From assembly GCF_003991155.1 (NCBI RefSeq), contig NZ_CP031293.1: DNA of 64,000 nucleotides; one strand, given 5' to 3'. The position numbers and the translations under genes are program-made. This document shows positions 5,606-42,840 of this stretch, in pieces; within the stretch, counting starts at the first letter, position 1, and each line of letters begins with the position of its first letter. The notes under the pieces are model-generated. The model ran no database searches, was not told the DNA's origin, and saw only the letters and a list, made by a program, of their open reading frames with translations. The DNA is from Escherichia coli. Lineage in GTDB: Bacteria > Pseudomonadota > Gammaproteobacteria > Enterobacterales > Enterobacteriaceae.

Positions 5606-5683
5606 TGCCGGATGAGGCGAAAACGCCTTATCCGGCCTACGGTTGATACGGTTTTCGTTGGCCGGATTAAGCCACATCCGGCC
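5606..5683. repeat. REP/BIME elements (two REP units)
   Basis: gccggatgaggcgaaaacgccttatccggcctac and ggccggattaagccacatccggcc: canonical REP palindromes. Confidence 0.75.
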
Positions 5684-15248: not shown

Positions 15249-16658
15249 ATGCAACGAGGGATAGTCTGGGTAGTCGATGACGATAGTTCCATCCGTTGGG
15301 TGCTTGAACGTGCGCTCGCTGGGGCAGGTTTAACCTGTACGACGTTTGAGAACGGCGCAGAAGTGCTGGAGGCGCTGGCGAGCAAAACGCCGGATGTGCT
15401 GCTTTCAGATATCCGTATGCCGGGAATGGACGGGCTGGCGCTGCTCAAGCAGATTAAACAGCGCCATCCAATGCTTCCGGTCATCATTATGACCGCACAT
15501 TCCGATCTTGATGCTGCCGTCAGCGCCTATCAACAAGGGGCGTTTGATTATCTGCCCAAACCGTTTGATATCGACGAAGCCGTGGCGCTGGTTGAGCGCG
15601 CCATCAGTCATTACCAGGAACAGCAGCAGCCGCGTAATGTTCAGCTTAACGGCCCAACGACCGATATCATCGGCGAAGCGCCAGCCATGCAGGACGTGTT
15701 CCGTATTATCGGTCGGCTTTCGCGTTCTTCTATTAGCGTGCTGATTAACGGCGAATCCGGCACCGGTAAAGAACTGGTCGCTCATGCCCTGCATCGCCAC
15801 AGTCCGCGAGCCAAAGCGCCGTTTATCGCGCTGAATATGGCAGCTATCCCAAAAGATTTGATCGAATCAGAACTGTTTGGTCACGAGAAAGGCGCGTTTA
15901 CCGGCGCGAATACCATTCGTCAGGGGCGTTTTGAACAGGCTGATGGCGGTACATTATTCCTCGATGAAATTGGCGATATGCCGCTGGATGTGCAGACGCG
16001 TTTGCTGCGCGTGCTGGCAGACGGTCAGTTTTACCGCGTTGGCGGCTATGCGCCGGTGAAAGTGGATGTGCGGATTATCGCTGCCACTCACCAGAATCTT
16101 GAACAGCGGGTGCAGGAAGGTAAGTTCCGTGAGGATCTGTTCCACCGCCTGAACGTTATCCGCGTTCATCTGCCGCCACTGCGTGAGCGTCGGGAAGATA
16201 TTCCCCGTCTGGCACGCCATTTTTTACAGGTTGCCGCGCGAGAGCTGGGCGTAGAAGCGAAGTTGCTGCATCCGGAAACCGAAGCCGCGCTGACGCGTCT
16301 GGCGTGGCCAGGCAACGTGCGCCAGCTGGAAAACACCTGTCGCTGGCTAACGGTGATGGCCGCCGGGCAGGAAGTGTTGATTCAGGATTTGCCCGGTGAA
16401 CTGTTTGAATCAACGGTTGCGGAGAGTACTTCGCAAATGCAACCGGACAGTTGGGCGACACTTTTAGCGCAGTGGGCAGATCGGGCGCTACGTTCCGGTC
16501 ATCAAAATCTGCTTTCCGAAGCGCAGCCTGAGCTGGAGCGGACGTTACTGACGACCGCGTTGCGACATACGCAGGGGCATAAACAGGAAGCAGCGCGGCT
16601 ACTTGGCTGGGGCCGTAACACCCTGACGCGTAAGTTAAAAGAGCTGGGAATGGAGTGA
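15249..16658 (+). CDS. glnG: Nitrogen regulation response regulator NtrC (sigma-54 enhancer-binding protein)
   Basis: ORF 15189..16658; start at [12 protein letters not shown] (15249) gives 469 aa; receiver domain, AAA+ GESGTGKE and GAFTGA motifs, C-terminal HTH. Confidence 0.95.
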
Positions 16659-16769
16659 TTCACGGCTTGTGTGTAAAGATTGATTATTGAGCGCAAATTG
16701 CTGGTATTTTGCGCTTTACTGTTCCGATAAGTTCAGTATGATCTTGCCCGGAAAACGGGGAGAGTCATT

Positions 16770-16880
16770 ATGCTGGAATCAATAATTAATCTGGTATCGA
16801 GTGGCGCAGTTGACAGCCACACACCACAAACTGCCGTTGCTGCCGTGCTGTGTGCCGCGATGATTGGGCTGTTTAGTTGA
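16770..16880 (+). CDS. yshB: Small hydrophobic protein (36 aa)
   Basis: ATG at 16770 preceded by GGGGAGAG; translation MLESIINLVSSGAVDSHTPQTAVAAVLCAAMIGLFS; not in the supplied ORF track (too short); corresponds to annotated K-12 yshB as recalled. Confidence 0.6.
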   Translation: MLESIINLVSSGAVDSHTPQTAVAAVLCAAMIGLFS

Positions 16881-16912
16881 GTTTCAGATTGCTGATGAAG
16901 TGCTCTTTGTTC

Positions 16913-17000
16913 ATGCCGGATGCGGCGTGAACGCCTTATCCGGCCTGCAAAAGCAATATTTTCAACAGGTTTTGTAGGCCTGATAAGCGTAGCGCATCAG
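16913..17000. repeat. REP/BIME elements
   Basis: gccggatgcggcgtgaacgccttatccggcctgc and aggcctgataagcgtagcgcatcaggc. Confidence 0.75.
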
Positions 17001-17069
17001 GCAATCTTGTTCTCAGCACATTGATGGCGCTTTCGTTTTCTACTTTGTAAACGAAGCGCCATTCACTAT

Positions 17070-18443
17070 TTAAATCACCCGTGAGAACTGCTGCATCCGC
17101 GCTTTCTGGCGCAGATAGGTATCAAAGCACATGCAAATGTTGCGGATCAGCAAGCGACCTTTCGCCGTCACTTGAATCCCCTTCTCATCCACATCCACCA
17201 GCCCATCTTTTGCTAACGGGGCGAGCAGCTTGAGATCTTCCGCAAAGTAATCAGCGAAGTGCAAATCCCACTGTTGCTCAATGGGAGCGTAATCCAGACG
17301 GAAGTTGCAGATGAGCGACTTAATCACATCGCGGCGAATACAGTCATCACGCGTTAGCGCAATACCACGCCACAGCGCATTGCCTTGTTCATCCACTTGC
17401 TGATAGTACTGCTTCAACTCTTTCTGGTTCTGCGCGTAGCAGTCGCCAATCATGCTGATGGCGGAAACGCCCATCCCCAGCAAATCGGTATCGCCCTGAG
17501 TGGTATAGCCCTGGAAGTTACGATGCAACACGCCTTCGCGCTGGGCCACTGCCAGCTCGTCATCAGGGCGAGCAAAGTGATCCATACCGATAAACTGATA
17601 GCCCGATTGTGTCAGGAAGGCGATGGTTTCCTGCAAGATATCGAGTTTTTGTTGCGGACTCGGCAAGTCAGCATCTTTGATTTTGCGTTGGGCGGCAAAA
17701 ATAGTTGGCAGATGCGCGTAGTTAAAGACGCTCAGACGATCGGGGTTCAGCTCCGCCACACGTTTCAGGGTAAAGGCAAAACTTTCCGGCGTCTGTTTCG
17801 GCAGACCGTAAATCAGGTCGATGTTGGTGGAGGTAAAGCCAATCTCACGCGCATGGTTAAGCAGTGCAAAGATGAACTCTTCATCCTGCTCGCGGTTAAC
17901 CAGACGTTGCACTTCTTTGTTGAAGTCCTGCACGCCCATGCTCAGGCGATTAAAGCCCTCGGCGCGTAAATGATCGAGTACATCCAGTTCGATTTCGCGC
18001 GGATCGACTTCGATCGAAATCTCCGCATCGGCATTGAACTGGAAGTTTTCGCGCAGCAGCTTCATCAGACGGCTGATTTGCGCTTTGTTCAGATACGTCG
18101 GCGTACCACCGCCCCAGTGCAGCTGGCTCACCTTGCGCCCGGCAAAAAGCGGTGCACGATGGACGATTTCTTGCTCCAGCGCGTCCAGATACTGATCGGC
18201 CTTGTGCTGCTGGCGAGTAACTATCTTATTGCAACCGCAGAAGTAACAAAGCTTATGGCAGAACGGAATATGTACGTAGAGAGATAATGGACGCTCAGGA
18301 TAGCGCGCCACGGCTTGTAAAAACGCCTGTTCGCCGAAGTCTTCTGAAAACTCCAGCGCGGTCGGGTACGAGGTGTATCGTGGCCCGGAATAGTTATATT
18401 TCTGGATCAGGGCCAGATCCCAGTCGATTTGCTGTACAGACAT
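17070..18443 (-). CDS. hemN: Oxygen-independent coproporphyrinogen III oxidase (radical SAM)
   Basis: ORF 17070..18449; start MSVQQIDW; CxxxCxxC radical-SAM motif HIPFCHKLCYFCGC. Confidence 0.95.
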   Translation of the reverse strand: MSVQQIDWDLALIQKYNYSGPRYTSYPTALEFSEDFGEQAFLQAVARYPERPLSLYVHIPFCHKLCYFCGCNKIVTRQQHKADQYLDALEQEIVHRAPLFAGRKVSQLHWGGGTPTYLNKAQISRLMKLLRENFQFNADAEISIEVDPREIELDVLDHLRAEGFNRLSMGVQDFNKEVQRLVNREQDEEFIFALLNHAREIGFTSTNIDLIYGLPKQTPESFAFTLKRVAELNPDRLSVFNYAHLPTIFAAQRKIKDADLPSPQQKLDILQETIAFLTQSGYQFIGMDHFARPDDELAVAQREGVLHRNFQGYTTQGDTDLLGMGVSAISMIGDCYAQNQKELKQYYQQVDEQGNALWRGIALTRDDCIRRDVIKSLICNFRLDYAPIEQQWDLHFADYFAEDLKLLAPLAKDGLVDVDEKGIQVTAKGRLLIRNICMCFDTYLRQKARMQQFSRVI

Positions 18444-18631
18444 GCTCACTCCTTCCGATGGCGTCTCTGGCGGCTACGGCGTACCGGCGGATGCCCGTTT
18501 CGGGTCATCAGCCGGTTGCGCAGCCACTTTTGTCGCCGCGACAACCGCTGTAGTTTAACGAATAACCACACCAGATAACATATAACCGGAAGGGTTATCA
18601 GCAGAACGGGAAGGCCCACGGCGGCAATCCG

Positions 18632-42711: not shown

Positions 42712-42840
42712 CTTGCCGGATGCGGCGTGAACGCCTTATCCGGTCTACCGATCCTGCACCCATGTGGGTCTGATAAGAAGCGCCAGCGTCGCATCAGGCA
42801 TCGTGCACCGATTGCCGGATGCGACATAGATCTAAATGCC
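42712..42840. repeat. REP/BIME cluster (about three REP units)
   Basis: gccggatgcggcgtgaacgccttatccggtctac..., ctgataagaagcgccagcgtcgcatcaggc, gccggatgcgac. Confidence 0.75.

Follow-up and report, generated by a model that had tools for sequence, protein, structure and literature searches.

A 36-codon open reading frame in the glnG-hemN spacer of Escherichia coli is yshB, a known gene for a small membrane protein

The 36-codon open reading frame that lies between glnG and hemN in the window, by which we mean the whole 64,000-nucleotide stretch of Escherichia coli DNA that was analysed (RefSeq assembly GCF_003991155.1, contig NZ_CP031293.1), is yshB, a gene known and annotated before, whose product, a small membrane protein, has been detected experimentally. 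The best overall explanation of the locus, to which we assign a probability of roughly 0.9, is that this known gene has its own promoter and that its product is anchored in the membrane. From the results given here or in the cited papers, YshB is a translated and selected small protein that can be cleaved, as a tagged form, by the intramembrane protease RseP.

Results

Identity and genomic setting of the reading frame

The following features lie in the glnG-hemN spacer:

16690 to 16715, + strand: inverted repeat AGCGCAAA-N10-TTTGCGCT, lying 32 nt past the stop codon of glnG and adjoining the -35 element
16715 to 16742, + strand: candidate sigma-70 promoter of yshB, TTTACT-16 nt-TATGAT, from a consensus scan
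16757 to 16764, + strand: Shine-Dalgarno sequence GGGGAGAG, read from the sequence, with its GGAG core at 16759 to 16762, 7 nt from the ATG
16770 to 16880, + strand: yshB coding sequence, 36 codons and a TGA stop, from the ORF listing, the NF033841 match and identity with K-12
16907 to 16952, no strand assigned: REP element GCCGGATGCGGCGTGAACGCCTTATCCGGCCT, a palindrome 3' of yshB
16970 to 17003, no strand assigned: second REP element TTTTGTAGGCCTGATAAGCGTAGCGCATCAGGC, in the opposite orientation, so that the two make up a BIME-like pair
17024 to 17062, no strand assigned: hairpin ATGGCGCTT-N21-AAGCGCCAT, whose arms are complementary at 9 of 9 bases, next to the hemN stop on its 3' side

The 36-residue product of the frame, read from its ATG to its TGA stop, is MLESIINLVSSGAVDSHTPQTAVAAVLCAAMIGLFS. 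The gene is housed in a spacer of 411 nt, with its ATG 112 nt after the stop of glnG (+ strand, stop at 16658) and with hemN (17070 to 18449, - strand) convergent to it. A preliminary description of this DNA had proposed a hydrophobic 36-codon frame here, with an ATG and a Shine-Dalgarno-like sequence, just downstream of the nitrogen regulator operon; the translation agrees exactly (GRAVY +1.12), and the glnG stop bears out the setting. Its further statement that the frame is flanked by REP elements stands for the 3' side, where there are two, and falls for the 5' side, where only the short hairpin or palindrome at 16690 to 16715 and the promoter are found. It had also named the frame as yshB, a small protein annotated at this place in K-12, and rightly so. 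The annotation of K-12 MG1655 has yshB (b4686, YP_002791260.1) at the same position between hemN and glnG, with a product identical to that of the window over all 36 amino acids and with the same promoter and Shine-Dalgarno sequence. Within the frame the two strains differ at 3 nucleotides, all of them synonymous third-position changes. The K-12 annotation has contained b4686 since the small-protein surveys of 2008.

Curated protein models give the same identification. The product matches the NCBIfam equivalog NF033841 (small_YshB) with 72.1 bits (E = 2.4e-20) against a curated cut-off of 34 bits, with residues 1 to 36 aligned on profile positions 1 to 40 of 40. Orthologues and homologs carry a precomputed Pfam match, PF28018:YshB, and the RefSeq PGAP label for the same DNA across E. 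coli genomes is "YshB family small membrane protein" or yshB. The gene is also a near-universal single-copy component of the species: of 5426 complete E. coli genomes, 5425 contain exactly one copy of a 181-nt segment spanning promoter and reading frame, always with an identity of at least 95%. Ten "plasmid" matches were considered as possible copies on mobile elements and rejected, as they belong to chromosomes, whole or in pieces, that carry a wrong label and keep the glnALG-yshB-hemN synteny intact. The gene order of a Salmonella "plasmid 3", for example, is glnA-glnL-glnG-yshB-hemN-yihI-yihA-polA.

The mere presence of such a frame would say little. The ORF listing has 56 frames of at least 20 amino acids within 4 kb, so one of the size of yshB is unremarkable alone, and the same spacer holds two frames of 34 to 37 amino acids that run through the REP elements. 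Since frames of this length are common by chance, the case for yshB as a gene needs other evidence. What lifts the frame above chance is its conservation across genera.

Conservation of yshB and evidence for coding selection

Loci were sampled by means of the GlnG C-terminus, so that the downstream spacers were picked without reference to yshB. The sample covers at least 11 Enterobacterales loci and at least 69 outgroup loci, and thus samples, rather than maps, how far the family extends taxonomically. By tblastn, a YshB homolog lies 110 to 135 nt past the glnG stop in 9 of the 11 Enterobacterales loci listed; the genera and species with a homolog are Enterobacter, Citrobacter, E. albertii, Superficieibacter and Acerihabitans. 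The same search found no homolog after glnG in any of the 69 outgroup loci listed (Shewanella, Pseudomonas, Halomonas, Acinetobacter and others). Two Enterobacterales loci have no yshB. One, from Klebsiella sp. BIGb0407 (L011, 3513 to 3600), has a glnG-hemN spacer of only 85 nt, and the other, from a low-GC metagenome-assembled genome (L012), has a different neighbouring gene. In at least one Enterobacterales lineage, that of the Klebsiella locus, yshB has thus been lost or was never gained. The Salmonella copy is 92% identical and has the same synteny, and even the most divergent full-length homologs (53 to 60% identity) are still encoded directly after glnG.

Ten orthologs were compared codon by codon. 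Over the 36 ungapped codon columns, 21 vary at position 1, 8 at position 2 and 34 at position 3. The pooled pN is 0.18 against a pS of 0.56, and pairwise dN/dS ranges from 0.05 to 0.5. A single length change occurs among the ten, an in-frame indel of 4 codons that yields proteins of 36 or 40 amino acids, and the annotated frame alone is free of stops in all of them. We rely on the column counts rather than on a chi-square test of pairwise differences, which is pseudo-replicated in that the pairs share ancestry. Judging from these substitution patterns, the yshB frame is under purifying selection in Enterobacterales, and such coding selection supports its translation.

The family is a narrow one. 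When 1.84 billion representative proteins were searched exhaustively, 15 matched at E <= 0.001, which is what marks its narrowness. All 14 matches with a retrieved sequence are YshB-like peptides; the fifteenth is a protein of 1691 amino acids (P0012) for which no aligned stretch is reported. Three entries of the representative library (P0002, P0006 and P0007) combine E. coli-like YshB N-termini with aberrant C-termini. In P0007, residues 1 to 24 are joined to a + strand frame, 16864 to 16977, which reads into the REP element (the corresponding part of the window is 16840 to 16977). These aberrant ends imply what may be rare deletions or frameshifts that would remove the membrane helix, or else assembly errors.

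The constancy of position raises the question of whether YshB serves its neighbours, as a membrane accessory either to the sensing and assimilation of nitrogen (GlnL/GlnG, AmtB) or to the anaerobic synthesis of haem (HemN). A gene for a periplasmic binding protein (SBP_bac_5) lies between yshB and hemN in the lineage that has a 37-amino-acid homolog, P0014 (L084 to L087, 3001 to 5650). As SBP_bac_5 parts yshB from hemN there while yshB remains about 100 nt after glnG (about 100 to 135 nt over such loci), it is glnG, rather than hemN, to which yshB is linked in a conserved way. That linkage, together with the overlap between the candidate glnG terminator and the -35 element of yshB, speaks for a functional tie to the neighbours. 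[quoted passage not shown] GlnL, GlnG and HemN are, moreover, cytoplasmic proteins. With these points weighed, we consider a role in the service of its neighbours improbable.

The yshB promoter and the conserved block upstream

The candidate sigma-70 promoter is preserved together with the translation signals. An alignment of ten species from several genera has CTTTAC at the -35 position and GTATGATC as invariant sequences, with the Shine-Dalgarno sequence and the ATG conserved as well; at the Shine-Dalgarno position, a purine-rich GGGAG, GGGGG or GGAGG block occurs in all 10 orthologous loci. Transcription is predicted to start near 16748 to 16750, which would give a leader of about 20 nt. 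An own promoter for yshB has been reported (PMC9731577). A hairpin in the 5' UTR that would mask the Shine-Dalgarno sequence (CCCG/CGGG) was considered and rejected: it has 3 base pairs, a free energy of -2.2 kcal/mol and no covariation.

The inverted repeat upstream of the promoter could be a candidate terminator hairpin of glnALG, a protein-binding palindrome, or both. As a conserved structure, the terminator hairpin is not supported, for 3 of 10 species have retained the sequence but can no longer form the pairing. The repeat forms part of a block conserved across genera (16671 to 16720) that contains TGTAAA (16671 to 16676) and the palindrome CGCAAA-N10-TTTGCG (16692 to 16713), next to the invariant CTTTAC. 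In the 3 of 10 species in which pairing is lost, the 5' half of the palindrome is retained, which points to a protein-binding site instead of, or besides, a glnALG terminator. The whole TGTAAA...CGCAAA-N10-TTTGCG block could be a candidate site for a regulator not yet assigned to yshB.

Conservation of this non-coding spacer would also be expected if the reading frame were incidental or regulatory and the functional product were an RNA, either derived from the glnALG 3' UTR or an independent sRNA, or a leader peptide that counts for being translated and not for its sequence. The position directly after glnG fits such an account, the equivalent position in Pseudomonas being that of the sRNA NrsZ (PMC9731577). 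The frame itself tells otherwise: three-base periodicity and a pN well below pS mean that it is the amino-acid sequence that is selected, and the intact peptide has been seen by top-down mass spectrometry (PMC12529367). No Rfam family matches the frame, the sole candidate 5' hairpin is the 3-base-pair structure without covariation described above, and, with hemN convergent, there is no same-strand coding gene downstream for a leader peptide to control. We therefore think it extremely unlikely that yshB acts through RNA alone or as a leader. A dual role, as both RNA and protein, may exist.

REP elements and the region 3' of yshB

The REP sequence GCCGGATGCGGCGTGAACGCCTTATCCGGCCT is present in 3 copies in the window against 0 expected by chance; the other two lie at 5607 to 5638 (3 mismatches) and 42715 to 42746 (1 mismatch). 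A query spanning the REP elements finds a median of 39 matching places per E. coli genome. The two elements downstream of yshB are also connected by an inverted repeat, in which 16935 to 16952 pairs with 16970 to 16987. A sub-threshold Rfam match to naRNA4 at 16909 to 16945 scores 38 bits, where the gathering score is 59.5, and falls on the REP palindrome; naRNA4 was rejected as a separate sRNA gene, as the match reflects REP similarity. Beyond the REP pair, the hairpin at 17024 to 17062 is identical in K-12 and is likely to be the region in which the convergent transcripts of hemN and yshB terminate.

This region differs between strains. In K-12, the yshB stop is directly followed by an additional REP-like insert of about 49 nt (L001, 1600 to 1648), which is absent from the window (16880 to 16905), and the second REP element differs between the two. 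The insert and the differing second element indicate that E. coli strains vary in the REP/BIME array 3' of yshB. Elsewhere in the same K-12 region, an sRNA, GlnZ (b4836; L001, 4429 to 4622), is annotated in the glnA 3' UTR of the glnALG operon.

Predicted structure and conserved residues of YshB

YshB contains no Lys or Arg, and the only residues in it that are charged or ionisable are two acidic ones and a single His. Its sole strongly hydrophobic run consists of residues 21 to 36, 16 residues at the extreme C-terminus. An AlphaFold prediction made with a 13-sequence alignment has two helices, spanning residues 2 to 13 and 17 to 35, with a mean pLDDT of 72. M1, P19, Q20, T21, A22, A25, C28 and A29 are invariant in the 13 sequences, and E3, H17, A24, F35 and S36 nearly so; the protein from the window carries all of the conserved positions. 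It likewise has the family core, H-(T/S)-P-Q-T-A-x-A-A-(V/I)-(L/M)-C-A, followed by the C-terminal hydrophobic tail.

The invariant small and polar residues (P19, Q20, T21, A22, A25, C28 and A29) fall on one helical arc of about 160 degrees. In a shuffle test of one-sided helix conservation over residues 21 to 36, 557 of 10000 shuffles reach the observed value, a marginal result, and over residues 17 to 36 the test is not significant. A search against PDB sequences returned no relative with a solved structure, and searches against PADLOC and PHROGs returned no match to YshB. With no positive charges flanking the helix, the orientation of YshB cannot be inferred from the positive-inside rule. 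A published table (PMC10470546, Table S1) gives a transmembrane segment from D15 to F35, obtained with TOPCONS rather than TMHMM, and a predicted N-out/C-in topology. The orientation to be expected of an RseP substrate would be N-in/C-out.

Published expression, RseP cleavage and virulence

Passages of PMC7549839 and PMC10502375 cite a level of more than 11,000 YshB copies per cell from ribosome profiling (Li et al. 2014). A C-terminally His-tagged form was undetectable after arabinose induction (PMC7549839), and intact YshB, which has no tryptic sites, was detected by top-down mass spectrometry (PMC12529367). Ribosome profiling, epitope tagging and conservation across Enterobacteriaceae had been named in the preliminary description as checks on the frame, and each speaks in its favour: profiling through the abundance cited in PMC7549839, tagging through the detection of tagged YshB (PMC10470546), to which top-down mass spectrometry adds the native peptide (PMC12529367), and conservation through a reading frame kept in ten orthologs from Enterobacterales.

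YshB is a class I substrate of RseP, positive in all four cleavage assays applied (an HA-MBP fusion with plasmid-borne RseP, HA-MBP with chromosomal RseP, a 3xFLAG fusion, and purified enzyme), and it undergoes an additional, RseP-independent periplasmic cleavage (PMC10470546). The RseP data all come from N-terminally tagged constructs and not from the native peptide (PMC10470546). The Salmonella homolog is reported to promote intracellular replication and virulence (Bomjan et al. 2019, as cited in passages of PMC10470546 and PMC9731577).

Cleavage by RseP places YshB in the company of toxins. HokB and HokE are likewise small, hydrophobic class I RseP substrates (PMC10470546), and the failure of His-tagged YshB to accumulate after arabinose induction (PMC7549839) would suit a peptide that damages membranes in the manner of type I toxins (Hok, TisB, Ibs, Ldr), by forming pores or by depolarisation, and that RseP detoxifies. 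The genetics of the two are different: Hok genes are toxic, occur in multiple copies, often on mobile elements, and come with antisense Sok RNAs and with leaders that are long and structured, whereas yshB is a single-copy core gene, fixed at the same syntenic position in E. coli and in related genera, with a leader of about 20 nt in place of a long structured 5' UTR. There is no promoter-like site on the opposite strand between 16500 and 17200, and no Rfam antitoxin or sRNA family was found at the frame, so that neither search points to the antisense RNA antitoxin of a type I toxin-antitoxin system. YshB also lacks Lys and Arg, PADLOC and PHROGs have no match to it, and cells reportedly contain more than 11,000 copies of it (PMC7549839, PMC10502375) and take no harm. 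PMC10470546 describes toxicity for HokB only and none for the YshB constructs. A toxin is, on this evidence, a very unlikely identity for YshB.

Discussion

The features described above can be combined into a working model. Just downstream of the glnALG operon, yshB would be transcribed from a sigma-70-type promoter of its own, and translation from a strong Shine-Dalgarno sequence and an ATG would yield the 36-residue YshB. The predicted layout has two helices, a short amphipathic one at the N-terminus (about residues 2 to 13) and one at the C-terminus (about residues 17 to 35), joined by a polar linker, and the last 16 residues would anchor the protein in the inner membrane. There, the transmembrane helix would pack against a larger inner-membrane protein and tune its activity or stability, with the invariant P19-Q20-T21-A22...A25...C28-A29 stretch as the putative packing surface, and RseP would set the lifetime of YshB.

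The modulatory part of this model draws on the fact that most characterised bacterial small membrane proteins, among them MgrB, MgtS, AcrZ and CydX, act in this way. These proteins, with their respective partners PhoQ, MgtA, AcrB and cytochrome bd, resemble YshB in having a single helix, fewer than 50 amino acids and own promoters. They were, like YshB, missed by classical annotation, and the comparison bears on the likely mode of action only. MgrB and CydX are RseP substrates alongside YshB (PMC10470546). The four have no sequence similarity to YshB, which differs from them in its lack of positive flanking charges and its 16-residue hydrophobic run. That YshB is a single-pass peptide which modulates a larger membrane protein and has an RseP-controlled lifetime is a tentative proposal, to which we give slightly less than even odds. 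Against it count the marginal shuffle test, the shortness of the hydrophobic run, whose transmembrane call comes from TOPCONS rather than TMHMM, the origin of all RseP data in N-terminally tagged constructs, and the C-terminally His-tagged form that escaped detection; none of this is real evidence against the identity of the gene. The toxin, RNA-only or leader, and NtrBC/HemN accounts all appear less likely than modulation of a membrane protein.

A more specific version of the modulator proposal can also be formulated. YshB would be a tail-anchored protein free of Lys and Arg, in which an invariant juxtamembrane and transmembrane face formed by H17, P19-Q20-T21-A22, A25 and C28-A29 binds one specific inner-membrane protein, perhaps via a metal- or redox-sensitive contact made by the His and Cys residues, and RseP cleavage would switch this binding off. 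We regard this version as doubtful in its full detail.

The finding carries little weight as a discovery, for the K-12 annotation, the curated NCBIfam and Pfam models and the automatic PGAP calls already exist. The comparative coding test, the defined conserved motif and the conserved promoter block could guide mechanistic work on the protein. YshB also shows how a gene track with a size cut-off leaves out a core protein of enterobacteria that is both real and abundant. Finally, if RseP does switch off the binding of YshB to a membrane partner, this would explain the intramacrophage phenotype in Salmonella.
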